A stretch of 64,000 nucleotides of DNA from Planctomycetota bacterium (GCA_035527715.1 DATKZY010000187.1:49388-113387); one strand, 5' to 3'; positions 17,975 to 46,622 are shown, counted from the first letter of the stretch. The notes: generated by a model from the letters alone, not told the origin. A program made the numbers and translations.

Positions 17975-18023
17975 AAATGCGGATTGCGGAATCCGGATTG
18001 CGGAATGCCGAATGCCGAATGTG
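17975..18023. repeat. Heptanucleotide tandem array of 7 units: AATGCGG ATTGCGG AATCCGG ATTGCGG AATGCCG AATGCCG AATGTGG
   Basis: It starts 3 nt after the TGA of the epimerase gene and fills the spacer before the GT4 gene. Confidence 0.85.
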
Positions 18024-18079
18024 GCACAGCCGCCCCCGGCTGTGCTGCCACAGGCAAGGGCGCCTGTGCCACACGCGCG

Positions 18080-28285: not shown

Positions 28286-29261
28286 GGTCAGCGTGGTGAT
28301 CCCAGCGTTCAACGCCGAGCGGTATCTCCGCGAGACGCTGGAGTCGGTGCTGGCCCAGACGTACCGGGACTTCGAGGTGGTGGTGGTGGACGATGGGTCG
28401 TCGGACGGCACGGCGGAGCTGGCAGCCAGCTTTGGCGAGCCCGTGCGGTGCATCCGCCAGGCCAACGCCGGGCCGTCCGCCGCCCGCAACCGCGGCATTC
28501 GCGAGGCCCGGGGCGAGCTGATCGCCTTCGTGGATTCCGACGACCTGTGGCTGCCCGAGAAGCTGGCCGAGCAGGTGCCGCTCTTCGATGGTGGCACAGG
28601 CTTCCAGCCTGTGGGCCTCGTCTACTGCCACGCAGAGCGGGTGGACGCCGAGGGGCGGCCGCTGCCCACGGCGCAGGCGCCGAAGCCGGTCGGCCGGGTT
28701 CCCGGGGACTTCCTTTTCCGCAACCACTGCCCGACCTCGGCCGCAGTGATCCGCCGCGAGTGCTTCGAGCGGTGCGGCTACCTCCCCGAGGACATGATTT
28801 GGGCGGAGGACTGGCATCTGTGGCTGCGGATCGCCCGCCGCTACGAGTTCGCCGCCGTTCCGCGCGTCCTCGTGCGGCACCGCGTCCACTCGGGCGCGCT
28901 CACGAAGCACATTGAGAAGGCGTATCTGGGCGCACGCCGCGTGCTCGAGACGGCGCTGGAGCCGGGCGACCCGCCGGAGTTGCGCGCCGCGCGGCGAAGC
29001 GGCCTCCACCGCCTCGACCGCAACCAGGCCCTCAACCTGCTGGCTTTGGGCGAGACGCGCGCGGCCCGCCGCTGCTTCCGCCGGGCCATCGGCAACGGGC
29101 CGGGCGACCCGCACGTCTGGGCCGGCTGCGCCCTGAGCCTTCTCCCCGCGGCTCTGCGGAGGCCCCTGATGCGCGCGTGGAAGCGCCGCGTGCCCTGGGT
29201 GCCCTGGGGCCCCGACGGACGGGCCGAGGCCCGAAGGTGGATGGACAGTGCAGGCGATTAA
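28278..29261 (+). CDS. GT2-family glycosyltransferase (soluble type)
   Basis: [17 protein letters not shown]...[12 protein letters not shown]...[16 protein letters not shown]-ttcca-GCCTGTG hairpin is inserted in-frame at 28595..28613. Confidence 0.85.
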
Positions 29262-30210
29262 GGACCTGGTCAAGAACACCTATGGTGGGGCGCTCTGGCA
29301 TACGGGCGCCCTGGCAGCTTGGCTGCGCCTGCGCCCCGGCCGCCGCTGGCCGTGGATCCTCAACTACCACCACATCGCCCCCGCGGCGTTCGAGGACCAC
29401 TTGCGCTGTCTCGTGCGCCGCTACCGCATCGTCCCCCTCGACGCCTGCATGGCGACGCTGAGCAGCGGCGAGCCGCTCCCAGACAATGCCGTGGCCATCA
29501 CGTTCGACGACGGCTATCAACAGGTCTACAACGAGCTGTTTCCCCTGCTGGCCAGGTACGAGGCGCCCGCCACAGTCTTCGTGCCCACGACGCCCGTGGA
29601 CACAGGGCAGCCGCTCTGGTTCAACCGCGTGAAGACCCTCGTCCGCACGACGACGGAGACCTCCTTACGCCTCGGCGACAAGGAGTTTCCCCTTGGGGGC
29701 GACCGCGAGGCGGCCTATGTGGCCGTGATGCGGCACCTCAATGCCCAAGGCATCTGCGCCCGCGACGCGATGCTGGCCGACTTGCTCGAAGGCGTGGACC
29801 TGCCGCCGGACAGGATGCTCCGCTACCAGCCCCTCACGTGGGACCAGATGCGGGCGATGCAGGGGCTGGTGACGATGGGCGGCCACACGCGGACGCATCC
29901 CTGGCTGAGCCGGCTGTCGCGCGCCGAGGCGGAGGATGAAATCCTGGGCTCGAAGGCGCGCCTCGAGGAGATGCTCGGCGCCCCCGTGCGCCATTTCGCC
30001 TACCCATTCGGCTCGCCCGACTCGTTCACGGACGAGACGGTGGAGGTCCTCAAGGCGGGCGGGTTCGTGAGCGCGGCGACGACGTGCCGCGGCCCGTGCA
30101 GGCCCGGCGTGTCGCCCTTCGCGCTGCCGCGCATCCTCTTCGATGGCAGTGTCGGAGGCAAGGTCGTCGCCGCCCGCCTCAGCGGCCTGTGGCTCTTCCT
30201 CTCCACGTGA
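29248..30210 (+). CDS. Polysaccharide deacetylase (NodB/CE4) family protein
   Basis: [18 protein letters not shown] and AYPFGSPD are present. It starts at GTG, overlapping the previous stop. Confidence 0.8.
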
Positions 30211-30275
30211 GGCAGGGGGCCGAAACAAATGGTACAATACTCCAGTGAGGGAGTCCTGGCCTGGGAAGCGACCGG

Positions 30276-31163
30276 ATGAACCAGAAAGCGGCGGTTGTCG
30301 AGCACTTCGACCGGTTCGCAGCGGACGATCGTTGGTCGAGTCTCTACGACGAGATCCGGGATCCGTTGGCGGCCCACAGCTTCCTGATGCGCAAGCGGCG
30401 GGTCGAAGAGCTGTCCGAGCCGCTCGTGGGGCAGGGCTCGAAGGTGCTCGACGTCGGCTGCGGCACGGGCCTCAGCGCGCCCTTCTACATCGAGAAGGGC
30501 TGCCGCTACCAGGGCGTGGACATCGCGGCGAAGATGATCGAGCAGGCGCGGACCAAGGTATGTGGGCGGGGGCTCTGTCCCCCGAGAGAAGCAGGAGAAG
30601 AAGCGGGGCGCGGAGGCCCCGCCCACAACGGTACAGCCGTCTTCGCCATCGGCGACGTCGAGGCCGGCCTCGCCTTTCCCGACGGGCATTTCGACCTCGT
30701 CATCGGCCTCGGCCTGCTCGAGTACCTGGACCGGCTGGACGCGGCGCTCGACGAGATGGTGCGGGTGACACGGCCGGGCGGGAGTCTGATCCTCACGGTG
30801 CCGAATCGCAATTGTGTGAATTACTTCGCCACCCGCGCCCTCGGGCCAGTCGTGTCGAGCGCCTGGTGGCTCGTCAAGCGTCTGCTGCGGCGGCCCATCG
30901 AGAAGCACGGCGTCTATCATCGGCGGTTCACGGCGGCCCGATTCGCGCAGTGGCTCGCCGACCGCGGCTGCGCGAAGACCGGCCAGGCGTATTACAACCT
31001 GGAGGCGCTCTTCTACCCGCTCCACCGCATTTGCCCCAGGCTGGCCTACGCCCTCAAGCGCCGCGTCGAGCGCCGCCACGAGGGCTGGATGCACGTCCTT
31101 GCCACTGGCTACATCCTTCGCTGCCAGAAGGGTGGGGGAGAGGAGGGGGGCGCCGGTGCCTGA
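30276..31163 (+). CDS. Class I SAM-dependent methyltransferase carrying an in-frame compound palindromic insert
   Basis: VLDVGCGTGL is motif I and LILTVPNR is also present. An insert of about 68 nt at 30561..30628 (TGTGGGCGGGGGC...GCCCCGCCCACA) encodes VCGRGLCPPREAGEEAGRGGPAHNG between motifs. Confidence 0.8.
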   Translation: MNQKAAVVEHFDRFAADDRWSSLYDEIRDPLAAHSFLMRKRRVEELSEPLVGQGSKVLDVGCGTGLSAPFYIEKGCRYQGVDIAAKMIEQARTKVCGRGLCPPREAGEEAGRGGPAHNGTAVFAIGDVEAGLAFPDGHFDLVIGLGLLEYLDRLDAALDEMVRVTRPGGSLILTVPNRNCVNYFATRALGPVVSSAWWLVKRLLRRPIEKHGVYHRRFTAARFAQWLADRGCAKTGQAYYNLEALFYPLHRICPRLAYALKRRVERRHEGWMHVLATGYILRCQKGGGEEGGAGA

Positions 31164-32223
31164 CGAGCGCCAGCTCGGGCTGGAGACAGAGCAGCGGCAC
31201 AGCCTCCTCGGCAAGGTGCGCCGCGGGCTCGGGATGTGGTGGCGGGGCGAGGCATCGCTCCGCCGCGTCGTCAACGCCGGGCTGTGCAATCTCTCGCTCC
31301 GCTGGCGCCTCGGGCGCGTGCTCGGCAGGCCCTACTTCCTGATGATCGAGCCGACCAACGCCTGCAACCTCCGCTGCCCGCTGTGCCCCACGGGGCGAGG
31401 CACCCTCGGCCGCGAGACCGCGTTCCTGCCGCTCGACCTGTTCCGCCGGTGCATCGCCGAGCTGGGCCGCTGCCTCATCGAGGTCAACGTGTCCAACTAC
31501 GGCGAGCCGATGATGCACAAGGACCTGCCCGCGATGATCGCCTGCGCGAAGGGGGCCGGCGCCCGCGTGTCCATCGGCTCCAACGGACACTTCCTCAACG
31601 ACGGATCGGCGCGGCAGCTCATCGAGAGCGGCCTCGACCTCATTTACATCTCGTTCGACGGCCTCGACCAGGCGACGTATGAGAAGTACCGCGTCCGCGG
31701 CAGCTTCGGGAAGGTCGTCGCAGGCGTCAAGTCCCTCCTCGCGCAGCGGAAGGCCCTTGGCAGGACGAACCCCTTCGTCGAGCTTCAGTTCCTCGTGATG
31801 AAGCACAACGAGCAGCAGCTCGACGGCTTCCGCACGCTCGCCGACGAGTTGGGCGCCGACCGGCGGGTCATCAAGCCCGTGAGCTTCAACGTCGCCGACT
31901 GGGACGACCCGGCCACCCAGGCCGCCTTCGGCGAGTTCTGCCCCACCAACGAGCAGTTCCAGGTCTATCGGCGGGAGGGCGAGGCGTGGCGCTGGAAGCG
32001 GGCCGAGCTGGCCTTCTGCACGGCCCCGTGGCGCTCGCTCACGGTGCTGGCCGACGGCTCGATCGTGCCCTGCTGCCGCGACCCGCGCGGCCACTACACG
32101 ATGGGCAACGCGGCCGACGGCGTGCTGCGGGTGTGGAACAACGCGCGCTTCCGCGCCTTCCGCAAGGCCCTGGCGCGCCGGCGTGGCCAGATGCCCATCT
32201 GCAAGGTGTGCCCAGGCGAGTGA
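31156..32223 (+). CDS. Radical SAM protein with a C-terminal SPASM/twitch domain
   Basis: CNLRCPLCP is the CxxxCxxC motif. The C-terminal Cys cluster is CCRDPRGHY...CKVCPG. GGAGAGGAGGGGGG is a strong RBS before GTG 31156. It overlaps the upstream stop by 8 nt. Confidence 0.8.
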   Translation: MPDERQLGLETEQRHSLLGKVRRGLGMWWRGEASLRRVVNAGLCNLSLRWRLGRVLGRPYFLMIEPTNACNLRCPLCPTGRGTLGRETAFLPLDLFRRCIAELGRCLIEVNVSNYGEPMMHKDLPAMIACAKGAGARVSIGSNGHFLNDGSARQLIESGLDLIYISFDGLDQATYEKYRVRGSFGKVVAGVKSLLAQRKALGRTNPFVELQFLVMKHNEQQLDGFRTLADELGADRRVIKPVSFNVADWDDPATQAAFGEFCPTNEQFQVYRREGEAWRWKRAELAFCTAPWRSLTVLADGSIVPCCRDPRGHYTMGNAADGVLRVWNNARFRAFRKALARRRGQMPICKVCPGE

Positions 32224-32231
32224 GGACCGCG

Positions 32232-33173
32232 ATGGCCGAGCCGCAGATGCCCTTCGTTTCGGTCGTCGTCGCGGCCTACAACTCGCGCGACACGATGGCC
32301 CGCTGTATCGAGGCCCTCCAGGGGCTCGACTACCCGAGCTTCGAGATCATCGTGGTGGACAACGCTTCGACCGACGGTACGCGGGACATTGCGGCGCGCT
32401 ATCCGGTCACGGTGCTCGACGAGTCGCGCCGCGGCTGGCCCGCCGCCCGCAACCGCGCCTGGCACTGGTCGAAGGCGCCCTTCGTGGCGAACATTGACGC
32501 CGATTGCTTCGCCGAGCCGTCGTGGCTGCGCGAGCTGGTCGCCGCCCTCCTGGCCGACCCTGGGGCCGGCTGCGCCGTCGGCCGCACGAAGGTCGAGCCG
32601 GGGAAGACCCTCGCCGAGCAGCACTATGCGGCGTGCGACCCGTTCAACATCGAGAAGTACGTGCAAGGCACGGCGCGGGCCTTCGGGCGGGCCTGCCCCT
32701 GGGGCGGGGGGAACAACTGCTTTCGCCGCGAGGTGCTCGAGGCCGTGGGCGGCTACGACGCCGAAACCTACACCTCGGGCGCCGACCGCGAGTTCCACCG
32801 CCGCTTCGAGGAGGCCACGGGCCTCCGCACCGTCTACGCCCCCAAGGCCGTCATCTGGCACGCCGCGCGCGGCTCCGTGCGCGAGCTGTTCCGCAACGCC
32901 GCGAAGTACGCCTCCGACGCCGTCCTCCACGCCCGGTTCGACCCCGGCGTGCGCGACCACCTGCGCGGCTTCGTCCGCCGCAACCTTGGCTTCATCGCCC
33001 GCAACGCCGCGGGCCTCGTGTGGCGGGCCGCGAAGTTCCTGATCGGGCGCGAGACGCGGCTGGGCGTATCACGCCCCTTCTTCTATAGCGTGCAGGAGTC
33101 GGGCTCGATCTGGGGCTATCTCAAGGGCCGGCGCCGCGTCAGGAGGATGCAGAGGAACCTCCCGCAGGTTTGA
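32232..33173 (+). CDS. GT2-family glycosyltransferase
   Basis: VSVVVAAYNS...IIVVDNASTDGT...DADCF. The stop codon TGA forms the loop of a perfect 13-bp hairpin. Confidence 0.8.
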   Translation: MAEPQMPFVSVVVAAYNSRDTMARCIEALQGLDYPSFEIIVVDNASTDGTRDIAARYPVTVLDESRRGWPAARNRAWHWSKAPFVANIDADCFAEPSWLRELVAALLADPGAGCAVGRTKVEPGKTLAEQHYAACDPFNIEKYVQGTARAFGRACPWGGGNNCFRREVLEAVGGYDAETYTSGADREFHRRFEEATGLRTVYAPKAVIWHAARGSVRELFRNAAKYASDAVLHARFDPGVRDHLRGFVRRNLGFIARNAAGLVWRAAKFLIGRETRLGVSRPFFYSVQESGSIWGYLKGRRRVRRMQRNLPQV

Positions 33174-33186
33174 AACCTGCGGGAGG
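33158..33186. repeat. Palindromic element family B: 29-nt perfect hairpin CCTCCCGCAGGTT-tga-AACCTGCGGGAGG whose loop is the stop codon of the GT2 gene
   Basis: A 13-bp perfect stem. A second copy at 61262..61290 has a compensatory base-pair change. There is no U-tract, so it is not a classical intrinsic terminator. Confidence 0.75.
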
Positions 33187-33208
33187 CTGAGACAAGGGGT
33201 GAGCCAAC

Positions 33209-34420
33209 ATGCCGGACGCGCCCGCAGTCGTCCTGTATATGAGCTATCTCGGCCTCGGGCTCGTGCGGGCCTTGGGGCGCGAGGGCGTGCGCGTCTTCGC
33301 CCTCGACCCGCACCCCGACGCCTTGGGCATGAACTCCCGCTACTGCCAGCCCGTCGTCACCCCCGACATCAAGCAGGACGAGGCGCGCTACCTGGAGTTC
33401 CTGCTGGACTTCGGCCGCCGCCTGCCCGCGAAGGCCGTGCTCTATCCCACCGGCGATCCGACGGTGGTGCTCCTGTCGCGCGAGCGTGAGGTCCTGTCGC
33501 AGTACTACCATTTCGTCATGCCGGACCACGCGACCGTGCTGAAGCTGCTGACGAAGGACGGGCTGGACGCCGTGGCCCGCGAGCACGGCATCCCGGCCCC
33601 CCGCACGGCCATCCCCGCCGACCGCGCGGCGGTGGAGGCCGCGGCGCGCGACCTCCAGTTCCCCGTCCTTCTCAAGCCCGCGGAGAGCCACGCCTGGAAG
33701 GCGAAGGCCATCGTGGACCTCATTGGCGTCGGCACCAAGGTCATCCCGTGCTCCAGTCCAGAGGAGTTGCTCGTCCAGTACGACCGCATCGCCGCCCACA
33801 ACCCCAACGTGATTGTCCAGGAACTCGTCCCCGGCGAGGACGAGCGGCTGGTGTACTTCTGCTTCTACGTCGGGCGGGACGGCGAGCCACTGGGCGTCTT
33901 CGCGGGGCGGAAGCGCCGCGTGCTGCCGCCCGGCCTCGGCTCGGCCAGCTTCGCCGAGACCATGGCCGACCCCGCGCTCACCGACGTGGCGCTGCGGCTC
34001 CTCCGCGCCGTGGACTATCGCGGACTCGGCGGCGTCGAGTTCAAGCTCGACCCGCGCGACAATACGTACAAGCTCATCGAGTTCAACGTGCGGTTCGGCC
34101 TCTGGGACGCGTTGGGCGCCCGCTGCGGGGTGAACCTGGCGCACCTCGCCTGGCGCGATGCGCTCGGGCTGCCCGTCGAGCCGCAGGTCCGCTGCCGCAC
34201 GGGCGTCAAGTGGGTCTCGATGCAGCGCGACCTGTCGGCATTCCGGCTCTACCGTCGCCAGGGCAAGCTGACCACGTGGCGCTGGCTCCGCTCGCTCGCC
34301 GGCGAGAAGATGTGGGCCGTCCTGGCGTGGGACGACCTGGCCCCGTTCTTGTCGAGCGCCCCAGGCTACGTGTGGGGACTCCTCGCGCCGCGGCTGGGAA
34401 TCGGGCGGGGCAGGGTGTAG
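33209..34420 (+). CDS. ATP-grasp domain protein (carbamoyl-phosphate-synthase/D-Ala-D-Ala-ligase-like fold)
   Basis: 403 aa. The patterns VLLKPAESHAWKAK...VIVQELVPGED...GVEFKLDPRDNTYKLIEFNVRFG resemble the ATP-grasp B and C subdomains. Confidence 0.7.
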   Translation: MPDAPAVVLYMSYLGLGLVRALGREGVRVFALDPHPDALGMNSRYCQPVVTPDIKQDEARYLEFLLDFGRRLPAKAVLYPTGDPTVVLLSREREVLSQYYHFVMPDHATVLKLLTKDGLDAVAREHGIPAPRTAIPADRAAVEAAARDLQFPVLLKPAESHAWKAKAIVDLIGVGTKVIPCSSPEELLVQYDRIAAHNPNVIVQELVPGEDERLVYFCFYVGRDGEPLGVFAGRKRRVLPPGLGSASFAETMADPALTDVALRLLRAVDYRGLGGVEFKLDPRDNTYKLIEFNVRFGLWDALGARCGVNLAHLAWRDALGLPVEPQVRCRTGVKWVSMQRDLSAFRLYRRQGKLTTWRWLRSLAGEKMWAVLAWDDLAPFLSSAPGYVWGLLAPRLGIGRGRV

Positions 34421-34434
34421 AATGGGAGAAGGCA

Positions 34435-34560
34435 GTGCGAAATGTAAAATGCAAAAGGCAAAGTGCAAAATCCAGAACACACCTGGGGCTAGGGGAGTAA
34501 GCGACATCGGGGCTCACCATTTTGCCTTTTGCACTTTGCCTTCTGCATTTTGCATTGGGA
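34435..34560. promoter_or_regulatory. AT-rich long imperfect inverted repeat immediately upstream of the B12-radical-SAM gene. It could be an operator/promoter or an RNA hairpin.
   Basis: The arms are gtgcgaaatgtaaaatgcaaaaggcaaagtgcaaaatcc and cattttgccttttgcactttgccttctgcattttgcattggga, separated by about 45 nt. It is the only strongly AT-rich patch in a 70% GC locus. Confidence 0.4.
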
Positions 34561-34570
34561 TTTCTCCGCG

Positions 34571-35953
34571 ATGAAGGTTGCGCTGATCCAGCCGCCAATG
34601 GATTCGGACTACCCGCCGCTGAGCCTCGGCTCGCTGGCGGCGTATCTGGCGTCGAAGGGGCACACGCCGCGCGTCTTCGACCTCCAGGTGCCGGCGCAGC
34701 GGGCCGAATGGCCGCGGGCGTTGGCGGAGTTCGCGCCCCAGCTCGTCGGCGTCACGGCGATGACCCCCACCATCGCCGCCGCGGCCGAGGTCGGTCGCAC
34801 CTGCAAGCAGGCCCTCCCCGACGCCACACTCGTCCTCGGCGGCTATCACGTGAGCTTCCTGCCCGAGGAGACGATGCGGCGCTACCCTGCCTTCGACGTG
34901 GGGGTGATCGGCGAGGGCGAGGTGACGCTGCACGAGCTGGTCGAGGCACTGGACGCGGGCCGCGAGTTGGACCAGGTGAGCGGGCTGATCCTCCGCCGTG
35001 GCGACGGCCTGGTGACGACCCCGCCGCGCGCGCGCATCCAGGACCTGGACGCCCTGCCCTGGCCCCACGAGCACTACGACCTCGGCCACTACCTGTGGTA
35101 CGGCGGCTACACGGGGCGCTGGACGTTCAAGTGCGCGAGCGCCATCGTCTCGCGCGGCTGCCCGTTTCGCTGCCGCTTTTGCGCCTCGCAGCGCTTCTGG
35201 TCGAAGCGTTACCTCGTCGGCTCGCCCGAGCACGTGGTGGACGAGATGCGGTGGCTGGCCCGCCACGGCGCGCGGAGCGTGTACTTCCGCGACAGCACGT
35301 TCAACGTCAAGAGGAAATGGCTCCGCGAGTTCTGCGCGGCGAAGCGGCGGGCGGGCCTCCGCATGCGCTGGCTGTGCAACAGCCGCGTGGACACGCTGGA
35401 CGAGGAGCAGCTCACGCTGATGGCCGAGGCGGGCCTCGAGGCCCTCTACTTCGGCGTCGAGAGCGGCAGCCAGCGCATCCTCGATTACTACAACAAAGGC
35501 GTCACCGTCGAGCAGACCCGCGAGGCATTCCGCCTCTGCCACAAGTACCGCGTCGCCACGGCGGCCTACTTCATGATCGGCGCGCCCATCGAGACGCGGG
35601 CCGACATCGAGGAGAGCCGCAAGCTCGCCCGCGAGCTGCGGGCGAAGTACACCTACTGGTTCATCTACACGCCGCTGCCGGGCGCCCCGCTTTACGACGA
35701 CTTCGTCGAGCGGGGCTACAAGCCCGACTTCGAGCACTTCGTCTTCAGCCGTGCGACGATTCCCGTGGGCGACCTGGCCCCCGAGGAGCTGGAGGCCCTC
35801 CACCACCAGCTCGTCGCCGAGTTCCGCCGCAAGACCACGCGGGGCGATGTCTGGCGGCGACGCTGGGAGATTCTCCGGTCCGTCCGCTCCTGGCGCGACG
35901 TGCGCCACCTGGGCCGCAAGCTCGCGCGGCGAATGGGGCTAGGTGGCCAGTAG
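34571..35953 (+). CDS. B12-binding domain radical SAM protein (class B radical SAM)
   Basis: The N-terminal B12-binding-like region is MKVALIQPP...VGVTAMT. SRGCPFRCRFC is the CxxxCxxC motif. The track ORF start at 34529 lies inside the AT-rich repeat, so the ATG at 34571 is preferred. Confidence 0.85.
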   Translation: MKVALIQPPMDSDYPPLSLGSLAAYLASKGHTPRVFDLQVPAQRAEWPRALAEFAPQLVGVTAMTPTIAAAAEVGRTCKQALPDATLVLGGYHVSFLPEETMRRYPAFDVGVIGEGEVTLHELVEALDAGRELDQVSGLILRRGDGLVTTPPRARIQDLDALPWPHEHYDLGHYLWYGGYTGRWTFKCASAIVSRGCPFRCRFCASQRFWSKRYLVGSPEHVVDEMRWLARHGARSVYFRDSTFNVKRKWLREFCAAKRRAGLRMRWLCNSRVDTLDEEQLTLMAEAGLEALYFGVESGSQRILDYYNKGVTVEQTREAFRLCHKYRVATAAYFMIGAPIETRADIEESRKLARELRAKYTYWFIYTPLPGAPLYDDFVERGYKPDFEHFVFSRATIPVGDLAPEELEALHHQLVAEFRRKTTRGDVWRRRWEILRSVRSWRDVRHLGRKLARRMGLGGQ

Positions 35954-36166
35954 TGGGCAAGTCAAGATGCTCACCCCCTCCCGTCCGGAGTGGTCTGAGC
36001 GCCTTGACTCAGCTCCACAACGAGGGTTCAGGAGAGCCACATGTCATTGCTGTGTATATGGTTGTGGCTCCGTCCGCGGCGCCGGTCGTCGGCCCGCCAA
36101 GATGTTCACCCCCTATTGCGCGCGCGTGAGCATCTTGAACACCTTGAGTTCGAGGTCTGACCCCGA

Positions 36167-37525
36167 ATGCGCGTGACGCTGGTGCAACCCGACACGGGCG
36201 GGAGCTATCCGCCGCTGAGCCTGGGCTACCTGGCGGCCTATGCCGCCGCGCGGGGCCACGAGGCGCGGATTCTCGACCTCCAGGTGCCCGCGCAGCGCGA
36301 GCGCTGGGAAGAGCTTCTCGTCGAGGCTCGGCCCGACCTCGTCGGCTTCACGGCCCTCACGCCGAGCATTCGCCAGGCGGGTGAGCTGGCCGCCCGCGCC
36401 CGCGAGCTTCTCCCCAGCGCGAAGCTCATCGTCGGCGGATTTCACGCCTCGATGGAGCCTGAACAGACGCTTCGCGACTATCCCGCCTTCGACTACCTGT
36501 GCATTGGCGAAGGCGAGGAAACGCTGGCCGAGCTGTGCGGGCGGCTCCAGGACGGCCAGTCGCCGGAAGGCATCGCGGGCCTCGCGTGGCGGAAGGGCGA
36601 GGCCGTCGAGCTCGGGCCGCCGCGGGGCCGGATCGCCGACCTCGATCTTCTGCCGAGCCCCCATGGCTTCTACGGCCTCGAGCACTACCTCGAATCGGGC
36701 AGTTTCACCTACCAGTATGGCTATCGCTGCGCGTCGGTCATCGCGTCGCGGGGTTGCCCGTTTCGCTGCCGGTTCTGCTCGATTCCGGGCAAGTACGTTC
36801 ATCAGTCGGTCGAGCGCCTGGCCGACGAGATTGCGGAGCTGCTTCGGCGGGGGGCCGACGGCGTGTTCTTCCGCGACAGCACGTTCACGATCCGGCGCGA
36901 CTGGGTGCTGGCCTTCTGCGAGGCCGTGCGCCAGCGGCGGATGCGGTTCCACTGGATCGCGAACGCGCGGCCGGACCTCGTGGACGACGAGCTGCTGGCG
37001 GCGATGAAGCGCGCGGGCTGCTTCGCCCTCTGCTACGGCGTCGAGAGCGGCCGCGACAGCGTGCTCGACTACTATGGCAAGGACCACACGGTCGAGGACA
37101 CCCGCCGCGCCGTGGCCGCGACGAAGCGCGCGGGCATTCGTGTCATCGCCTACTTCATGCTCGGCGCGCCCATCGAGACGCGGGCCGACATCGAGGCGAG
37201 CCACCAGTTCGCCCGCGAGCTGGGCGCCGAGCGCACGATCTGGAAGATCTTCGCCCCGCTCCCCGGCTGCGAGATCTACAACGAGCTGAAGGCCAAAGGC
37301 GTGAAGCTGGACTTCGATGCGATTCGCACCGACCGGGCCTCGTATCCGCTGGCAGACATGACCGAGGCGGAGATCGAGCAGCGGTTCCGCGAGCTACAGG
37401 CAGAGTTCGCCTACACCCGCGGCAGCCGCCTCCGCGTCTTCTGGCGTCAGCTTCGCCGCGTCCGCTCGCCCCGCGACGCCTGGCGCCTCGCCCGCCGGGT
37501 GGCAGCCAGGCTGCTTCGTGGGTAG
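36167..37525 (+). CDS. B12-binding domain radical SAM protein, tandem paralog of the 34571..35953 gene
   Basis: MRVTLVQPD...SRGCPFRCRFCSIPGKY. The domain order matches the upstream paralog and the two are about 50% identical by eye. Confidence 0.85.
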   Translation: MRVTLVQPDTGGSYPPLSLGYLAAYAAARGHEARILDLQVPAQRERWEELLVEARPDLVGFTALTPSIRQAGELAARARELLPSAKLIVGGFHASMEPEQTLRDYPAFDYLCIGEGEETLAELCGRLQDGQSPEGIAGLAWRKGEAVELGPPRGRIADLDLLPSPHGFYGLEHYLESGSFTYQYGYRCASVIASRGCPFRCRFCSIPGKYVHQSVERLADEIAELLRRGADGVFFRDSTFTIRRDWVLAFCEAVRQRRMRFHWIANARPDLVDDELLAAMKRAGCFALCYGVESGRDSVLDYYGKDHTVEDTRRAVAATKRAGIRVIAYFMLGAPIETRADIEASHQFARELGAERTIWKIFAPLPGCEIYNELKAKGVKLDFDAIRTDRASYPLADMTEAEIEQRFRELQAEFAYTRGSRLRVFWRQLRRVRSPRDAWRLARRVAARLLRG

Positions 37526-37630
37526 GATGGTTGGATGAATGGATGACTGGATGATTGTCAGAGGAGCCTTGCCGCCTTCCCATTCATCCATCCATCCACC
37601 CATCCATTCATCCTCCTCCAGGAGGCGCAT

Positions 37631-38647
37631 GTGAGCCGCTGGGCCAGGCAACTCGTCGTCACCGTGTCCGTCGAGCCCGACGATCCGTCGGTCGTGGGCC
37701 GGTCGGGAGCGTATCGCTCACTCGACGGGCTTGAGCGGTTCCACGAGCTGTGCCGACGCTACGGCGTGCGGCCGACGTATCTCGCCACGTACTCGGCGGC
37801 GGGGGAGACCCGGTGCGTGGACCTCTTCCGCTCCTGCGGCGACGAGGCCGAGGTCGGGGCGCACCTGCACCCCGAGGAGGTGCCGCCCATCGCCGAGGGC
37901 GAGCGTGGCAACCACACGCTGCGCCCGAGCGCGGTCGAGCCCGGCCGCCTGCGGGAAAAGCTGGCCAACCTCGTCGAGCGCGTGGCGGAGGCGGCGGGGC
38001 GGCGGCCCACCGCGTATCGCGCCGGCTTCTTCGACCTCACGCCCAGCCAGGTCGTCGCGCTTGTTGGGCTGGGGATCGAAGCCGACTCCAGCCTTGGCCC
38101 CCTGGAAAAGGTCGGCGGCAAGTACCCGTTTCTTCGCGTTCCCTTTGAGCCATACGTCGCTGACCCCGCGAACCCGTGCACAGAGGCTCACGCGTCACGC
38201 GTCACGCGTCACGCATCACTCGTCGAGGTTCCCCTCACCAGCGTCTTCCGCCGTCCTTTTCCCAGGCGGCTTTTTGGTGTATACTTCGGGATGCCGGGTG
38301 TCGTGCGAGGGGCGCTGCGCGCGCTCGGCGCCGCCGAGGTGCTGCGGTTCCGCCCGGCAGTGGCCTCCGCCGACGACTTGCTGGCCGTGTGCCGGCGCAC
38401 GGAGCGGCTGGGCGTGCCCGCGGTCATGACCATTCACTCGAACGAGTTGTGGCCGGGCACGAGCGCGGGGTCACATCTTCATTTGGCACCTGGCGGCGAA
38501 GTGCGAAATGAAGATGTGACCCCCGAGGCGGCCTGTGCCGCCTACTTCGAGCGCCTCGAGCGGGTGTTCGCGCATTGCCAGGCGGACGGCTGGGCGAGCC
38601 GCACGCTCACGGAGATCGCCCGCGCAACCCGGGGGAATGCGGGATGA
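37631..38647 (+). CDS. Polysaccharide deacetylase-like protein (LTVDTE-type paralog of 26115..27221). It carries palindromic element A4 and an in-frame GTCACGC heptamer array.
   Basis: VVTVSVEPDD...HLHPEE. Element A4 encodes GSHLHLAPGGEVRNEDVTPE. The array at 38187..38214 encodes AHASRVTRHAS. Confidence 0.65.
   Translation: MSRWARQLVVTVSVEPDDPSVVGRSGAYRSLDGLERFHELCRRYGVRPTYLATYSAAGETRCVDLFRSCGDEAEVGAHLHPEEVPPIAEGERGNHTLRPSAVEPGRLREKLANLVERVAEAAGRRPTAYRAGFFDLTPSQVVALVGLGIEADSSLGPLEKVGGKYPFLRVPFEPYVADPANPCTEAHASRVTRHASLVEVPLTSVFRRPFPRRLFGVYFGMPGVVRGALRALGAAEVLRFRPAVASADDLLAVCRRTERLGVPAVMTIHSNELWPGTSAGSHLHLAPGGEVRNEDVTPEAACAAYFERLERVFAHCQADGWASRTLTEIARATRGNAG
38187..38214. repeat. Heptanucleotide array CTCACGC GTCACGC GTCACGC ATCACTC, in-frame in a CDS
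   Basis: The same GTCACGC array recurs at 63815..63842 inside the last gene. Confidence 0.8.
38467..38523. mobile_element. Palindromic element family A, copy A4
   Basis: GGGGTCACATCTTCATTTGGCAC-11 nt-GTGCGAAATGAAGATGTGACCCC. It is nearly identical to A1. Confidence 0.8.
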
Positions 38648-39051
38648 TGGGGCCGGCGACCCACTTCTTGTTCGGCATGCTGTGCGGAGCGGCGATCGGG
38701 GGGGTGGCCGTGGCCCTGCGCCGCAGGTGGCTGGCGTGGCTGCCGGCTTTCATCCTGGCCTGCGGCTTCTGGGCCGAGATGCCCTGCCTCGTCGGCGTGC
38801 GCGACGTCGCCCACCCGCTGGCCAATGTGTTCTTCGGCTACGCCTGGCTGCATCCGTGGCTCGAGGCCGACGAGCTGACGGGCTTCTCCTTCGTCCTCGG
38901 GCTGGCGAACCTGATGATGCTGGCCTGCGTGGTCTTCCTGTACCGGTTCTTCGCCGCGGTGGACTTGGTGCGGTGGGAACGCGAGGAGCCTCCGCGCGAG
39001 CGGGAGCGCTCCCGGCCGCATCGCTCCCGCCGCCATCGCGCGAGGGAGTGA
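38644..39051 (+). CDS. Small membrane protein. It is a paralog of the N-terminal domain of the downstream giant protein.
   Basis: 135 aa. It shares the conserved blocks RRRWL.WLP, ACG and ANVFF...WL with residues 1-110 of the 39059 gene. ATGATG overlaps the previous stop. Confidence 0.5.
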   Translation: MMGPATHFLFGMLCGAAIGGVAVALRRRWLAWLPAFILACGFWAEMPCLVGVRDVAHPLANVFFGYAWLHPWLEADELTGFSFVLGLANLMMLACVVFLYRFFAAVDLVRWEREEPPRERERSRPHRSRRHRARE

Positions 39052-39058
39052 CGCCGCC

Positions 39059-42000
39059 ATGCCGATGCCCCAGGTGCACTTCGCGGTCGGCATGGGAGCG
39101 GCCTCGCTGCTGGGCGTGCCGCTGCTCGTGCTGCGCCGGCGCTGGCTCCTGTGGCTGCCGCTCGTCATGACCGCGTGCGGCGCGCTGGCGCTGGTGCCCG
39201 ACGTGGTAGCGCGGGGCAGGGACTTCCTGCCCGGGCCCGCGGCCGAGCGGGGGCGCACGCACACCCCCGCGGCCAACGTGTTCTTCCTGCACACGTGGCT
39301 CGACCGGCAGCCGGCCCTCTACGCGCCGGCCGTGGCCGACCTGGCGTTCCAGGCCGTGGCGCTGATGTACCTGGCCTCCGCCATCGGCTATGCGGCCTTC
39401 CTCCGCTGGGGGCTCCCTCGGATGGCCGAAGCGGGGGAGGCGTTAGCGCGGCTGCGGCGCGAGACGGCGAGCTATCGCCCCGTGGCCGCCCTGCTCGGCC
39501 TGCTGCCGCTCGTGGTGGCCGGCGCGGCGGCGGTGTGGACGCTGTGGCCCAAACGCCCCGCGGGCGCGCCCGCCCAGGGGCAGGAGGCGCTCGACCCCGC
39601 GCAGTGGGCGCAACTTGTCTCGCGGCGCCTCGGCGTCGCGGTCGGCCAGCGCCTCGGCGTCGTCCATTCGACATGGGACAGCCATGGGGCCTGGCTGTGC
39701 GGCGACCTGGGGGCGAGGGTGTCGCCCGACGCGCCGGGCGCCGCCGAGCTCGTCGAGCGCGCGAAGGCCAATGGCTGCGATTTCGTGGCGTTGCTGGACG
39801 GCGCGAGCCCTGACGACCTTGCCGCGGCGCGACAGAAGCACCCCGACATGGCCCTCCTGGCGGGCCTGGTGTGGGACGCGCCGACGAGGCGGGGGGCCGA
39901 GCGAGCCATCGTGCTGGTGCCGCCGCAAGCGCGCGAGGCCGCGGTGCTGGCCGACTTCCGCCGGCAGTTCGCCGGCCCGGGCGGATCGGCAGAGGATGCC
40001 CTGCGATGGCTCGACGCCCACGGCGCCTCGCCCAAGGCACAGCCCGTGGTCCTGGCGGCACAGGCTTCCAGCCTGTGGGCCACAGGCAAGATGCCTGTGC
40101 CACCGGGCAGCGGGGAGGGCTGGCCGGATCTCTTCTCGTGGCGGCGGACGAATGGGCTGTTCATCGGCTTCCTCGGCCTTCCGGGCGCCGAACGCCTGTC
40201 CGCCCGCGAGGCCCGCAGCCAGTGGGACCCCCGCGTGGCCGCCGTGGGGGGCATGTGGGACAGGTTCCTGGACGGGGGCTTCCGGCTCTGGGGCGCGGCC
40301 GCGGCATCCGGCTTCCAGGACCCTGCCCGGCAGTTCTGGCCGGGCGAGTTCGCCCGCACCCACGTGTGGTGCCGCGGGCGCGCCGCGGAGGACGTGTTGG
40401 GCGGCCTCCGGGACGGGTGCTTCTGGGCCGTCGAGGGCGCGGTCGTGCGCGCGCTGGACTTCGGGGTCAACGCCCCGACGCTCGAGCGGCCCGCGCGGAT
40501 GGGCGAGGTGGCCCGCGTGGCGCCGGGCGACGAGGTGACCGTGGAGCTGGCCCTGGACGTGCCGCCCACCGACTTCGCCGGGCGCCCGAGCCAGCTCGAC
40601 GAGGTGGAGCTGGTCTCGAACTTCGGCGGCGAGGCCGAGGTCGTCGCGCGGTTCCGCAACGTGCACGACGTGCGCCGCCTCGAGCACCGCCTGCCGCCGG
40701 CCCAGGACGCCAACGGCGGCCTCGGCTTCTACGTGCGCGCCCGAGGCTCCCGCCGCGTGGATGCGGGAGCGCGGCTGTTCTTCTACACGAACCCCATCCG
40801 CGTCCTCGTGCGGCCGGGGCTGGCGCCGCCGGCGCCGCCGGGCGCGGCCCCCGTCCGCGTGGCCTCGGCGCACCGCCCCGTCGAGCCCGCGCCGCCGAAG
40901 CCCAAGACGGCGACGCCCGTAGCGCCGCCGCCCGAGGACGACGTGCGGGCGCGGCTCGCCGCCGTCGGCCTGCCGGCCGGCGTGAGCCCCGTGTGCGTCG
41001 AAACGTTTCAGAAGCCGCCCGGGCGCCAGTGGCTTGGCGCCCACGTGAGCATCATCGGCGACCGCGGCCCGGCCCTGGGCGACGAGGAGCTGCGCGTCGA
41101 GCTCCTCCAGCGCATCCCCCTTGGCGAGGCCACCCGACTGTTCTTCCGGTGCTACGCCTTGGACTGTGCCCGGCTGACGCTTGTCGCGCGCCCCGGCGGC
41201 GGAGCGGCCGCCTGCCAGGCCGTCCGCGAGCTCCCCGAGCGTCAGTGGGTCGAGTTCGACCTCTCGCTCGGCGACGACTTCCTGCCCCTGCGCGGGACCT
41301 CGGGCCGCCTGGGGCCGCCGGGCGAGGTCCAGGCCCTCGAGTGGGCTGGCGCCCGCCTCGGGCCGCTCTCGCGCTTCTACGTGACCGATGTCGTCGTCTA
41401 CGAGCCCACGCCTGCCAGCCGCCAGGGGCTGGCCCTGAAGCAAGCGGTGGACCTGGACGCGGCGCTGCGCGAGACGGCGGGCCGAGGGGCGACCGCAGCC
41501 ATGCAGCAACGGGCCCAGGCCGCCCTGGACCGCCTCGCCGCCTGGCGCGCGCGGCTCGACCCCAGACGAGGGCCACCGACGCCCGACGAACTGGCCGCCG
41601 TCCGCCGCGACCTGGCCGAGTTGGCCGCCGAGAGCCGTTGTCTTGGCTGGCAGGCCGCCATGACTCGCACCTTCCGCCTCGGCGACCCCAGGTTCGCCGT
41701 CACCCTCGCCGCCCCCGGCCAGCGCATCTCGGCGCGCAACCCCGCGCTCAACCCGTCGCCACAGATCGCCCGCTCGTGGGACCTGGCCGCCGCCGGCGCC
41801 GAGGCCGAGAGCGTCCAGATCGTCGTCATCGCCCTCTGGGACAGGCTCGAGGCCGTCGCCGTCGGCGTCTCGCCGTTCGTCCCTGTGGCTCGGGATGGGG
41901 CCGAGGGCCCGCCCGGCGGCGAGCGGGCCGCCACGCTGCCGACCTCGCTTGCCCTCGTGGGCGAGGCGATGGTGCGCCCAGGCCCCCTCCTCGCCCCCGA

Positions 42001-43882
42001 GCAGGCGGGGTGGATGCCCGACCCGTTGCTGCCGTTCCAGCTCTTCGACGTCGAGCCGGGCGAGGCCCGCTCGCTGCTTCTCACCGTGGAGGTGCCGCCC
42101 GACCTGTTGCCCGGCGAGTACGAGAGCGAGGTCACCGTGCAGCCGCGGGGCATGGAGCCCGTGCGAGTGGCGGTGCGCCTGCGCCGCTGGGGCTTCACCC
42201 TCGAGGGCCACCCCCTCGCGGTGTTCGGCCCGCTCGACGAGCGGGCGCTCAGCGCGCACTGCGCCTCCGGCAAGGCCGTTCCCCAGCCGCTTCGCCGCGC
42301 GCTCTACGAAATGCTGCTGCGCCACGGCGTGACCCCGGTGCCCCTGCTCGGCGGCGACGAGGCGGCGGACCTCGAGGAGGCCCTCTTCTGCCTCGAGGCC
42401 GGCGCGGGCGTAGTGGTCCTGCGCGAGGCTGCCTCCGTGGCCCCCGGGCCGCGGGAGGCCGACGTGGCTCGCGCCGCGCGCTGTGCCGACAGGATTCGCG
42501 AGGCCGGCTGGGGGCGCCGCGGCGCGCTCCTCCTGCCCCTGGCGCCCGACGCCGAGAGGGAGCGCTCCCGGATGGCCGCCTTCGCCCGCACCCTCGCCCG
42601 CGAGCACCCGGCGCTCCTGCTCCTCGCGGGGGGCGACAGCGACCCGCCCCTCGACCTGGTGACCCACGTGTGGCGCCGTCCCCTGGGCGCCGACCCGCCG
42701 CGCCGGCCCCACGACAACGACGTGGATGTCCGCCTCTCCCGCACCGCCCGCCGCGAGGGCTGGGAGCTTGTCGCCGGCTCGCCCGAATCCCCCGTGCCCG
42801 GTCTCCTCGTCACCAGCCCACTCCACCACGTCCGCCTCCTGCCCTGGCTCGCCTGGCAGCACGGCGTCCGAGCCCTCTTCCTCCGCGGCGTGACCCGGTG
42901 GCAGGAGGACGACGATTTGCGCGACGGCGCCCTCGTCTACCCGCTCCCTCTTCCCGCACACCCCGCTCCCGGGGGGGGAGGGTGCTGCGCCTCGCTGCGC
43001 CTCGTGGCCCTCCGCGACGGCATCGAGGACTACGCCTGCCTGCGCCTGCTCTGGGACCGCGCGCGCCTGCTGCGCGAGCGCGCCGCCGCACGACACGGGC
43101 CCCTCCTGGCCGCGGCGGAACGCCTTCTCGCCGACGCCGCCGGCGGCATCGGCACCCTCCAGCGCCCGTGCCGCGACCCACACGTGCTCGCGACCCTGCG
43201 CGCGCGGCTGGCCCGCGAGCTCGAGCGTCTCGACGCCGCCTGGTGGGCCGAGGTGGACGCCGCGAAGGACCTCCCGCCTCCGCCGCCCGCCCTCACCGCG
43301 AAGCCGGGCGACGGCCAGATCGTCCTCACCTGGGGCAGGAGCCCCGACGCCAAGGTCGTCGGCTACAACGTCTTCCGCAGCCGCGCTCCCGAGGCCGGCT
43401 TCGCGCGCCTCAACGCCCTTCCCATCGAGGGCCTCACCTACGTGGACCGCTCGGTGGCCAACGACGTCACCTACCACTACTTCCTGCGCTCGTGCCGCGA
43501 CGGGCTGGTGGACGGCCCTCGGAGCGCCCTGGCCTCCGCCCAGGCCCGCCCGGCGCCGCGCATCGTGTGGCTGCCCGGCGCCACGCCCCGCCACGGCGTC
43601 GCCGGGCCCTGCCGCATCGCGCTCCGCGTCGAGGGGCCCGGCACGGCCGGCCTCCTGCCCCTCGTGCGCCCGCAGATGGACTACGCGGCCGCCGGCGCCG
43701 CGTTCGACGGCTTCGAGGACATGACGCGCCAGGACGACGGCACCTGGGCCTTCGACATTCCCGACCTCGGCTGGCGCCGCCTCGCCGGCGAGAGGCTCCG
43801 CATCCAGGCGCGCATCGTGGACCGCCAGGGCCGCGTCGTCACGCCCCCGGTCGAGCGCAGCGAAACCATCGGCGCGCCCTGA
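39059..43882 (+). CDS. Large (1607 aa) membrane-anchored multidomain protein: N-terminal membrane domain, central DUF4091-like (glycoside-hydrolase-associated) region and C-terminal fibronectin type III-like domain
   Basis: The frame is continuous with high GC3. WMPDPLLPFQLFDVEPGEARSLLLTVEVPPDLLPGEYESEVTV resembles DUF4091. The Fn3-like region is PGDGQIVLTWGRSPDAKVVGYNVFRS. A double CACAGGC hairpin is inserted in-frame at 40057..40101. Confidence 0.65.
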   Translation: MPMPQVHFAVGMGAASLLGVPLLVLRRRWLLWLPLVMTACGALALVPDVVARGRDFLPGPAAERGRTHTPAANVFFLHTWLDRQPALYAPAVADLAFQAVALMYLASAIGYAAFLRWGLPRMAEAGEALARLRRETASYRPVAALLGLLPLVVAGAAAVWTLWPKRPAGAPAQGQEALDPAQWAQLVSRRLGVAVGQRLGVVHSTWDSHGAWLCGDLGARVSPDAPGAAELVERAKANGCDFVALLDGASPDDLAAARQKHPDMALLAGLVWDAPTRRGAERAIVLVPPQAREAAVLADFRRQFAGPGGSAEDALRWLDAHGASPKAQPVVLAAQASSLWATGKMPVPPGSGEGWPDLFSWRRTNGLFIGFLGLPGAERLSAREARSQWDPRVAAVGGMWDRFLDGGFRLWGAAAASGFQDPARQFWPGEFARTHVWCRGRAAEDVLGGLRDGCFWAVEGAVVRALDFGVNAPTLERPARMGEVARVAPGDEVTVELALDVPPTDFAGRPSQLDEVELVSNFGGEAEVVARFRNVHDVRRLEHRLPPAQDANGGLGFYVRARGSRRVDAGARLFFYTNPIRVLVRPGLAPPAPPGAAPVRVASAHRPVEPAPPKPKTATPVAPPPEDDVRARLAAVGLPAGVSPVCVETFQKPPGRQWLGAHVSIIGDRGPALGDEELRVELLQRIPLGEATRLFFRCYALDCARLTLVARPGGGAAACQAVRELPERQWVEFDLSLGDDFLPLRGTSGRLGPPGEVQALEWAGARLGPLSRFYVTDVVVYEPTPASRQGLALKQAVDLDAALRETAGRGATAAMQQRAQAALDRLAAWRARLDPRRGPPTPDELAAVRRDLAELAAESRCLGWQAAMTRTFRLGDPRFAVTLAAPGQRISARNPALNPSPQIARSWDLAAAGAEAESVQIVVIALWDRLEAVAVGVSPFVPVARDGAEGPPGGERAATLPTSLALVGEAMVRPGPLLAPEQAGWMPDPLLPFQLFDVEPGEARSLLLTVEVPPDLLPGEYESEVTVQPRGMEPVRVAVRLRRWGFTLEGHPLAVFGPLDERALSAHCASGKAVPQPLRRALYEMLLRHGVTPVPLLGGDEAADLEEALFCLEAGAGVVVLREAASVAPGPREADVARAARCADRIREAGWGRRGALLLPLAPDAERERSRMAAFARTLAREHPALLLLAGGDSDPPLDLVTHVWRRPLGADPPRRPHDNDVDVRLSRTARREGWELVAGSPESPVPGLLVTSPLHHVRLLPWLAWQHGVRALFLRGVTRWQEDDDLRDGALVYPLPLPAHPAPGGGGCCASLRLVALRDGIEDYACLRLLWDRARLLRERAAARHGPLLAAAERLLADAAGGIGTLQRPCRDPHVLATLRARLARELERLDAAWWAEVDAAKDLPPPPPALTAKPGDGQIVLTWGRSPDAKVVGYNVFRSRAPEAGFARLNALPIEGLTYVDRSVANDVTYHYFLRSCRDGLVDGPRSALASAQARPAPRIVWLPGATPRHGVAGPCRIALRVEGPGTAGLLPLVRPQMDYAAAGAAFDGFEDMTRQDDGTWAFDIPDLGWRRLAGERLRIQARIVDRQGRVVTPPVERSETIGAP
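40057..40101. repeat. Palindromic element family C: GGCACAGGC-ttcca-GCCTGTGGGCCACAGGC-aagat-GCCTGTGCC, nested hairpins, in-frame in a CDS
   Basis: 24 nt are identical to 28593..28616 in the GT2 gene. It encodes [17 protein letters not shown]. Confidence 0.75.
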
Positions 43883-46574: not shown

Positions 46575-46622
46575 GCGGCCCCGCGCGGCCGCACGCCAGG
46601 CCCCCGGCGGGAGAATCTGCGA

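Follow-up and report, generated by a model that had tools for sequence, protein, structure and literature searches.

A GTGG-tagged hairpin repeat, probably of the REP type, inside genes of a Planctomycetota bacterium

GTAG-tagged repetitive extragenic palindromes (REPs) were defined by Di Nocera, De Gregorio and Rocco (2013; BMC Genomics 14:522, PMC3733652), who reported their presence in bacteria of the Planctomycetes–Verrucomicrobia–Chlamydiae (PVC) group. For one of these bacteria, Opitutus terrae, Additional file 3 of that paper catalogues GTAG-19 units in about 40 open reading frames (ORFs), in frame and both as singles and as dimers. The REP-encoded peptides are given as GTGVPPV, GTGVSPV, TGGTPVP, HGRDARAT and WHGRPAR, the GTAG-19 dimers are described as tail-to-tail with 1-2 bp between the units, and a GTGG tag is stated for most elements of the family numbered GTAG-20 in the main text (text and supplement differ in their numbering; we use GTAG-19 as in Additional file 3). 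Classical REPINs, the paired form of such repeats, are described as mostly vertically inherited (Bertels and Rainey 2011, PMC3116915). Here we analyse a stretch of 64,000 nt from a Planctomycetota bacterium (GCA_035527715.1 DATKZY010000187.1:49388-113387; "the window" means this whole stretch), in which a first-pass annotation had noticed a small palindrome, CACAGGC-N5-GCCTGTG, both in a gene for a family-2 glycosyltransferase (GT2) and in the ORF of a 1607-aa protein.

We consider it likely that this element is a GTAG/GTGG-tagged REP and that its double-hairpin form is a REPIN-like tail-to-tail dimer, mobilised by a REP-associated tyrosine transposase (RAYT) and landed at coding sites able to tolerate it. 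The kind of element is already described, since in-frame intragenic copies are catalogued in another PVC bacterium, O. terrae (PMC3733652). What is new is its occurrence in this Planctomycetota lineage, the heterodimer of units with loops TTCCA and AAGAT, and the wide range of phyla in which the unit and one RAYT clade are found.

The repeat unit and its copies in the window

An identical stretch of 25 nt, GGCACAGGCTTCCAGCCTGTGGGCC, is found by exact matching at 28593-28617 and 40057-40081. The first-pass annotation had reported a shared 24-mer, GCACAGGCTTCCAGCCTGTGGGCC, and this does occur exactly twice in the window (28594-28617 and 40058-40081), but the first coordinate had been placed one base off and the identity really extends over 25 nt. 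With at most one mismatch, CACAGGC-N5-GCCTGTG matched the window three times, at 28595, 40059 and 40081, and did not match any of 100 dinucleotide-preserving shuffles of it. Generic 7-bp hairpins, on the other hand, numbered 46 versus 27-44 in the shuffles, which is not a clear enrichment; the signal is therefore specific to the CACAGGC family and not to hairpins in general.

The unit is composed of a 4-nt tag (GTGG), a perfect 7-bp stem (CACAGGC/GCCTGTG) and a 5-nt loop, for a total of 23 nt, or 24 nt if the usual preceding G is counted. In its full form, as seen across relatives, it reads G-GTGG-CACAGGC-N5-GCCTGTG, and CCACC frequently follows at the other end. The terminal GGCC of the shared 25-mer lies outside the element: it represents ancestral Gly-Leu codons in GT2, and in the large ORF it comprises the 3-nt spacer and the base with which the next unit begins. 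Altogether, the window contains five units at three loci (Table 1), with GTGG/CCAC tags of which one is degenerate (GCGG). The loci are 10-12 kb apart, and units within a locus are adjacent and inverted, with a spacer of 3-4 nt. At the 1607-aa ORF, where a nested double hairpin had been proposed, the second hairpin (GCCACAGGC-aagat-GCCTGTGCC) is indeed present at 40079-40101, but the structure is better described as a tail-to-tail REP dimer. The same two-unit architecture recurs at 18021-18072, a locus missed by the first-pass annotation, where the first stem (18025-18044) carries a compensatory G>C / C>G change.

When folded as single-stranded DNA, the single GT2 unit gave a hairpin of -9.3 kcal/mol (z -2.95). 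The dimers at 40050-40108 and 18018-18078 each gave one long hairpin, not two small ones (-23.2 kcal/mol, z -4.44, and -24.5 kcal/mol, z -4.84, respectively), and for both of them none of 200 shuffles folded as well. Scanned against Rfam with gathering thresholds, the whole window matched no family. No CRISPR array was found in the window, where the copies are not regularly spaced, and sequence inspection disclosed no T-run or other terminator feature beside the GT2 and 1607-aa copies. A literature search with literal sequences (GGTGGCACAGGC and others) returned unrelated eukaryotic primer matches only.

The GC-rich GTGG-tagged units lack stop codons in all six reading frames and are thus readable in any frame, whereas the GTAG-tagged version contains TAG in one frame per strand. 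This explains how the unit can be read as GTGFQPV in GT2 and as AQASSLW...TGKMPVP in the 1607-aa protein. In GT2, the unit encodes residues 105-112 (GGTGFQPV) and the copy reads GGTGFQPVG. Translation confirmed both the peptide GTGFQPVG of the first-pass annotation and the position of the second copy within the 1607-aa ORF. There, the shared sequence is read one base out of register, yielding AQASSLW and then, from the second hairpin, ATGKMPVP.

A protein identical to the window GT2 is found on seven public contigs (JGI, Logan and NCBI; also in ENA assemblies and in an NCBI Planctomycetota metagenome-assembled genome, MAG). In an alignment with 45 homologs, about 38 had the short loop VPLFD-AEG-RVGLVYC at the REP site, and extra residues exactly at that position occurred in the closest relatives only. 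An insertion in GT2 had been proposed from the palindrome, with a comparison of orthologs as the check, and the short ancestral loop D-AEG-RVGL in those roughly 38 sequences bears it out. However, the net gain is of three codons, and not of eight residues: the hairpin displaced some 12-15 ancestral nt (about 4-5 codons), leaving a gain of 9 nt, or 3 aa. In addition, the close relatives L003 and L006 keep a hairpin at the same site, with other loops. The site reads GGTGFQP in the window (net +3), GGTGVPP in P0004 (net +2), SGSGLLP in P0007 (net +3), PSASLGAGPQGS in P0017 (net +8), EEKGTGSFFAREKGACPLF in P0002 (net +16) and EKGTGYFSAPGKVSDGERISCSSAPEKVACPLF in P0003 (net +29). At the DNA level, the window (28588-28617) has GGTGGCACAGGC-TTCCA-GCCTGTGGGCC, L003 the same stem with loop GTCCC, and L006 the loop CTCCT on a stem that is slightly degraded; L004 (10319-10372, 54 nt) and L005 (381-476, 96 nt) have a different, longer palindrome, GAAAAGGGGACAGGC...GCCTGTCCCCTTTTC, and the empty site of L124 is GAC-GCCGAGGGCCGC-GTTGGGCTG. 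The long palindrome of L004 and L005 has an inner palindrome within its loop. This one GT2 loop is an insertion hot spot, the 8-aa insert of P0017 being yet another one.

In an AlphaFold2 model of GT2 (mean pLDDT, the per-residue confidence score, 93.6), the REP-encoded residues 105-112 fill a coil, formed by 105-111, that leads from helix 95-104 to strand 112-122, and this coil is the lowest-pLDDT block of the catalytic domain. The dimer in the 1607-aa ORF adds 13 residues without counterpart in any of 20 full-length orthologs (BLASTP identity 45-71%). The empty sites of the two closest ones, L125 and L126, read GCG/GCC-TGCCC(A/G)T(G/C)C(G/T)C(C/G)-GGC. One homolog of this protein is named DUF4091 domain-containing by NCBI. 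Judging from these alignments, the intragenic copies in GT2 and in the 1607-aa protein are lineage-specific insertions.

The dimer of the third locus lies between an upstream stop codon (TGA 17970-17972) and the likely GTG start of a gene for a GT4 glycosyltransferase. The public call for this gene (389 aa, ending at 19174) begins at ATG 18005 and spans both a heptamer tract and the REP dimer. This start is probably mis-called, because the conserved N-terminus, of a typical GT4 kind (VLQFVDALLRGGAERLL), begins at GTG 18080; the Pfam GT4 domain begins at residue 48 of the long ORF. With two copies read in different frames, a third locus upstream of a start codon and orthologs that have no insert, the first-pass view of a palindromic insert family at the sequence level, and not of protein homology, proved sound.

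Table 1. Positions of the repeat units, of their host or neighbouring genes and of the family A palindrome in the window
Feature	Position	Strand	Layout	Basis
Single REP unit in GT2 gene	28591..28613	+	GTGG 28591-28594; CACAGGC 28595-28601; TTCCA 28602-28606; GCCTGTG 28607-28613	Sequence, shuffle control, ortholog alignment
Tail-to-tail REP dimer (REPIN-like) in 1607-aa ORF	40055..40103	+		Sequence, orthologs, folding
1607-aa-ORF dimer, unit 1			tag GCGG 40055-40058; CACAGGC-TTCCA-GCCTGTG 40059-40077; spacer GGC 40078-40080	
1607-aa-ORF dimer, unit 2 (inverted)			CACAGGC-AAGAT-GCCTGTG 40081-40099; tag CCAC 40100-40103	
Degenerate tail-to-tail REP dimer upstream of probable GT4 start	18021..18072	+		Half-site search
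Third locus, unit 1			GTGG 18021-18024; CACAGCC-GCCCCC-GGCTGTG 18025-18044; spacer CTGC	
Third locus, unit 2			CACAGGC-AAGGGC-GCCTGTG 18049-18068; CCAC 18069-18072	
Family-2 glycosyltransferase (GT2), 327 aa	28278..29261	+		Pfam PF00535 Glycos_transf_2, E 1.9e-36
1607-aa conserved protein	39059..43882	+		No Pfam hit
GT4 glycosyltransferase gene	18080..19174	+		Pfam Glyco_transf_4 + Glycos_transf_1; GTG 18080 start inferred
Family A palindrome	21780-21846, 26218-26284, 38463-38529; half copy 22771-22804		GGGGTCACATCTTCATTTGGCAC...GTGCGAAATGAAGATGTGACCCC	

Relatives, other phyla and transposase genes

The recurrence of the motif elsewhere, which the first-pass annotation had put forward as a check, was observed in contigs of related MAGs, in a scan of the genomes of many species and in metagenomes; outside the window the motif is abundant. 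The L003 contig, from a related MAG, carries six units in 7.9 kb, four of them inside ORFs confirmed by orthologs, and units are also found in its intergenic gap 3523-3653; L004 carries one pair. A polysaccharide deacetylase of L003 contains GGTGFQPV; its counterparts in the window, L004, L006 and L124 are of the short form. L003 also shows 9 additional residues in the N-terminal part of GT2 (SEVAQASRLC) and 9 near the C-terminus of a methyltransferase (WRPQAGGLC). Conversely, the GT4 inter-domain linker of L004 contains a hairpin pair that the window and L006 lack, so that presence and absence of the unit differ in both directions between relatives. Dimers were also carried by L129 and L179, from the metagenome of the JGI contig that contains the window (Ga0307379_10000229); their GC content is 66%, versus 70% for the window, so they may belong to another organism.

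The GT4 gene of L004 (6370-7626) bears a second lineage-specific insert, SRGRDAPPTVSRDGDVPPT, at about 6630-6720. Its sequence looks as if it were encoded by other GC-rich, REP-like hairpins whose loops are GGGAC, and several REP families may colonise coding regions in this clade.

Searching one genome per species with the pattern GGTGGCACAGGC-N5-GCCTGTG, we found at least 116 loci, compared with a rough chance estimate of about 4-20. The matches listed came from Phycisphaerae and other Planctomycetota, Gemmata, Desulfobaccales, Verrucomicrobiota, Chloroflexi, Cyanobacteria, Elusimicrobia, Terriglobia and several others, and their loops were restricted (GTCTC 36, GTCCC 33, TTCCA 22, ATCTT 8). 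Most of the listed matches are in MAGs, so that some phylum assignments could reflect mis-binning; they also include several independent MAGs of Desulfobaccales and Phycisphaerae, as well as isolates (Gemmata, Microcoleus). In metagenomes, the exact TTCCA unit followed after 0-30 nt by the AAGAT unit (38 fixed bases) was present at no fewer than 120 loci. Among the metagenome matches listed, the left tags of 124 dimers were mainly GTGG (64), GTAG (32) and GGAG (14), with the complementary CCAC/CTAC/CTCC at the right end; the distribution of spacer lengths had peaks at 3 and 9 nt, and contig GC ranged from 53% to 73%. The longest stop-free frame was tried as a proxy for intragenic metagenome copies and discarded, being uninformative at 66-70% GC.

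A link to a transposase came from the Elusimicrobia contig L083, which contains a REP_Tyr_transpos gene (NCBIfam NF047646, 74.6 bits, the match being split by an insert). This RAYT gene has GTAG-CACAGGC-TTCCA-GCCTGTG upstream and two copies of CACAGGC-AAGAT-GCCTGTG-CCAC at and just past its 3' end, and it carries within itself an in-frame TTCCA/AAGAT dimer (peptide STGFQPVCMHSQDGCAT). A homology search with the L083 RAYT returned 1,375 proteins from several phyla, many of which carry the name RayT or REP-associated tyrosine transposase in their source. At three of three homolog loci (L247, L248 and L249), CACAGGC units were located at, overlapping or just beyond the gene ends. Thus RAYT genes of one clade were flanked or overlapped by CACAGGC REPs in 4/4 loci examined.

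Some further features of these loci may be recorded. In the RAYT gene of L083 (965-1700), the internal dimer separates the HUH motif (MPDHVHLL) from the C-terminal half of the domain, and the terminal codons of the gene are themselves REP-derived (STGFQPV at the N-terminus, TGKMPVPP at the C-terminus). In L247 (3587-4555), the RAYT gene and its flanking REPs are placed between hsdS and hsdM of a type I restriction-modification system. In a Desulfobacca MAG (L061, 7100-7900), a RAYT gene is directly flanked by GTAG-CCGCAGGC-TTTA-GCCTGCG REPs, and each of these has a GGTGGCRCAGGC hairpin as its partner at a distance of about 30 nt. The same heterodimer, of the CACAGGC unit with GCGCAGGC-TAAA-GCCTGCGGCTAC, is recurrent in many Desulfobaccales loci.

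Two candidates for the cognate enzyme were considered and rejected, namely a RAYT from Phycisphaerae (L020), which is flanked by a different REP (GTAGGGCGTGCAAC), and a 345-aa Y1 gene of L006, whose terminal repeats resemble family A, another palindrome of the window.

Origin of the copies

According to the interpretation that we favour, the units would be non-autonomous and would be acted upon by a RAYT (HUH/Y1) encoded elsewhere in the genome. By analogy with published work on RAYTs and on IS200/IS605, such an enzyme would recognise the tagged hairpin on single-stranded DNA, cut it and copy it. The site of landing could be any; a copy within a gene would persist only if it left the reading frame intact and lay in a surface loop or linker that tolerates it. 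We infer that mobilisation by a RAYT has operated in this genome as well.

Several observations weigh against this interpretation. A search of the 64-kb window for a Y1/RAYT gene (phmmer and an ad hoc hidden Markov model, on all stop-to-stop ORFs of at least 90 aa) found none, and the different REP around the L020 gene means that the presence of a RAYT is not in itself specific to the CACAGGC family. Filled and empty sites at six loci revealed neither a target-site duplication nor a consistent target, so the insertion chemistry is unreadable from them. The insertions are not clean unit-length additions, each site having seemingly lost about 9-15 ancestral nt to the element, and their boundaries overlap ancestral bases (GTGGGCC, GCCAC, CCNGTG), although this may be alignment ambiguity. 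Of the three window loci, two lie within genes, an atypical location for REPs albeit one documented for O. terrae. Finally, the GT2 site bears the hairpin in three lineages (loops TTCCA, GTCCC and CTCCT) and unrelated palindromes in two more, and this variety at a single site requires repeated hits, replacement or gene conversion there.

Could the hairpins be host cis-elements instead, maintained by selection because they stabilise mRNA, pause translation or bind gyrase, integration host factor (IHF) or some other factor, so that their spread reflects function and not transposition? Across many phyla there is hardly any variation in the stem or in the small set of loops (GTCTC, GTCCC, TTCCA, ATCTT), the compensatory change at 18025-18044 preserves pairing, the three lineages keeping the GT2-site hairpin have GT2 proteins 77-85% identical to that of the window, and REP roles in mRNA stability and gyrase binding are published (cited in PMC3733652). 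On the other hand, copies occur in unrelated genes, in every frame and at non-orthologous sites that differ between close relatives, the copies have no adjoining terminator feature and no Rfam match, and the close association with RAYT genes is as expected of a mobile element. We hold this explanation to be unlikely, with the proviso that function and mobility are not mutually exclusive. The overlap of insert boundaries with ancestral bases (GTGGGCC in GT2, GCCAC in the methyltransferase) would also be expected if the units had spread without a dedicated transposase, through gene conversion, ectopic recombination or replication template switching at hairpins in fragile loop-coding sites. The same can be said of the replacement of sequence in lieu of simple addition, of the several different palindromes at one GT2 site, and of the fact that both window copies have loop TTCCA and the orthologous L003 copy GTCCC. 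Template switching, however, cannot account for the recurrence, in many organisms and at hundreds of unrelated loci, of identical units of 19-38 nt whose loops and tags are fixed, nor for the consistent flanking of one RAYT clade, and we regard such a route as very improbable. As for a selected peptide shared at the protein level, or a chance match in GC-rich DNA, both copies do lie in ORFs with the reading frame kept. Yet they are translated in different frames into unrelated peptides, the unit is also found upstream of the probable GT4 start (18021-18072) and in the L003 intergenic gap (3523-3653), and the shuffles (0/100) contained no match; the frame difference and the shuffle control already refute this idea, to which we give practically no credence.

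A broader and more tentative proposal can be made, which we put forward as a possibility on the doubtful side. One REPIN lineage (GTRG-CACAGGC-TTCCA...AAGAT-GCCTGTG-CYAC) and its RAYT clade might have been maintained with hardly any change across many phyla, among them Planctomycetota, Verrucomicrobiota, Desulfobacterota, Elusimicrobiota, Chloroflexota, Cyanobacteria and Acidobacteriota, and the stop-free GTGG variant may be adapted to persist within coding sequence. If true, such sharing would contradict the current view that REPIN-RAYT systems are lineage-specific and inherited vertically, and would imply either horizontal spread between phyla or an extreme conservation of the recognition code between transposase and hairpin. 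A GTGG variant adapted to coding sequence would in turn be a recurrent source of loop insertions in proteins, even in the gene of its own transposase. In our opinion, this multi-phylum association of a hairpin pair with a RAYT clade is of greater interest than the finding in the window itself; should it hold in complete genomes, it would bear on the strict verticality of REPIN-RAYT systems and on how much loop variation they generate. For annotation, REP units account for odd, lineage-specific loop insertions in Planctomycetota proteins (GTGFQPV, TGKMPVP, VAQASRLC), and REP-derived peptides should not be taken as evidence of protein homology.

Other repeats in the window and comparison with known systems

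The first-pass annotation had regarded the CACAGGC unit as the same phenomenon as family A. Both palindromes are tied to Y1 transposases, but they belong to distinct classes. Family A (GGGGTCACATCTTCATTT..., GGGGTCAC...) fits the motif GGGGWSAS of the class with long terminal inverted repeats (PMC3733652), and repeats of this type are described as flanking a second class of tyrosine transposases, TIRYT (Di Nocera 2013, PMC3733652). In the same gene cluster of L006, similar inverted repeats (GGTGTCAAATCTTCTTTTTTCAC, at 17038-17062 and 18108-18132) bracket the 345-aa Y1_Tnp gene. Family A is probably a transposase-less form of the L006-type element, because it shares the GGGGWSAS start and resembles the repeats around that gene.

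Other repeats of the window are of different kinds. Two adjacent paralogous genes for B12-binding radical SAM proteins (34522-37525) share stretches of 77-79% identity 1584-1596 nt apart, and a 298-nt direct repeat (81% identity) occurs at 46237 and 46609, 372 nt apart (46237-46906); both are probably tandem duplications. There are also at least 12 short tandem arrays of heptanucleotides, in 3-7 copies, with units such as AATGCGG, ACTCCGC, GAAATCC, GCGGAAT and TCACGCG (positions 1393, 7861, 8249, 9802, 17976, 24945, 28252, 34436/34518, 38188, 45848, 63039 and 63815). Among the arrays checked, those at 8249, 17976, 28252 and 34436/34518 are intergenic and a short way upstream of start codons. 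In L003, similar tracts are read through within ORFs (SDFGFRISDLGFQNPIRNPQSAIRN). The window arrays resemble the heptamer repeats of the short tandemly repeated repetitive (STRR) type of cyanobacteria.

Turning to the CACAGGC units, a comparison can be made with the cyanobacterial small dispersed repeats, which Elhai et al. reportedly described in Genome Research in 2008 and which are said to be palindromes of about 21-27 nt, located in genes and spacers and sometimes nested. They are a different sequence family; the CACAGGC units carry the GTAG/GTGG tag and flank RAYT genes, whereas we know of no established link between the cyanobacterial repeats and a transposase. Miniature inverted-repeat transposable elements (MITEs) are recognised by the terminal inverted repeats of an insertion sequence together with a target-site duplication, a combination that the CACAGGC units do not show. 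Their size, 23-51 nt, also falls below the range of 70-300 bp that PMC3733652 gives for MITEs.

In behaviour, the units are reminiscent of the Rickettsia palindromic elements (RPEs), described as in-frame palindromes of functional genes that encode loop peptides without destroying the protein (PMC3733652). The likeness is behavioural only: the RPE host is Rickettsia, and the sequences are probably unrelated. RPE-1 elements are, in addition, much longer (about 100-150 bp). The short intragenic RPE-4 and RPE-6 of Rickettsia conorii are CGTC-tagged, and CGTC-tagged repeats are presented in PMC3733652 as having no associated transposase.

The resemblance to REPINs is closer. As described for these (Bertels and Rainey 2011, PMC3116915), the window dimers consist of inverted REPs that are separated by a short spacer and form one long hairpin. 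The dimer of the 1607-aa ORF is unlike classical REPINs in having a spacer of 3 nt only. Classical REPINs are extragenic and, as far as is known, each is lineage-specific, whereas the CACAGGC unit is often found inside genes and, with its RAYT clade, seems almost unchanged in many phyla. Like the REPIN-RAYT systems (REPtrons) in their published descriptions, the CACAGGC family is non-autonomous and is found around a Y1/HUH transposase gene flanked by its own REPs (L083, L247, L249).

The window unit also has the features of a GTAG-type REP, namely a short (20-40 bp) stem-loop with a GTAG/GTRG tag at one end. Unlike this family, GTAG-type REPs are predominantly extragenic, O. terrae being the exception given in PMC3733652. 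The GTAG-19 family of that organism differs from the window units in its host (a member of the Verrucomicrobia, versus a Planctomycetota MAG) and in the loops implied by the peptides listed, mostly GTCCC/GTCTC as opposed to TTCCA and AAGAT. In other respects it is closely similar: its listed peptides back-translate to GGCACAGGC-GTCCC/GTCTC-GCCTGTG and the complement, so that, as far as back-translation can tell, the stem is identical to ours, and one of them, GTGVPPV, is the very peptide of the L003 GT2 copy (GGCACAGGCGTCCCGCCTGTG).

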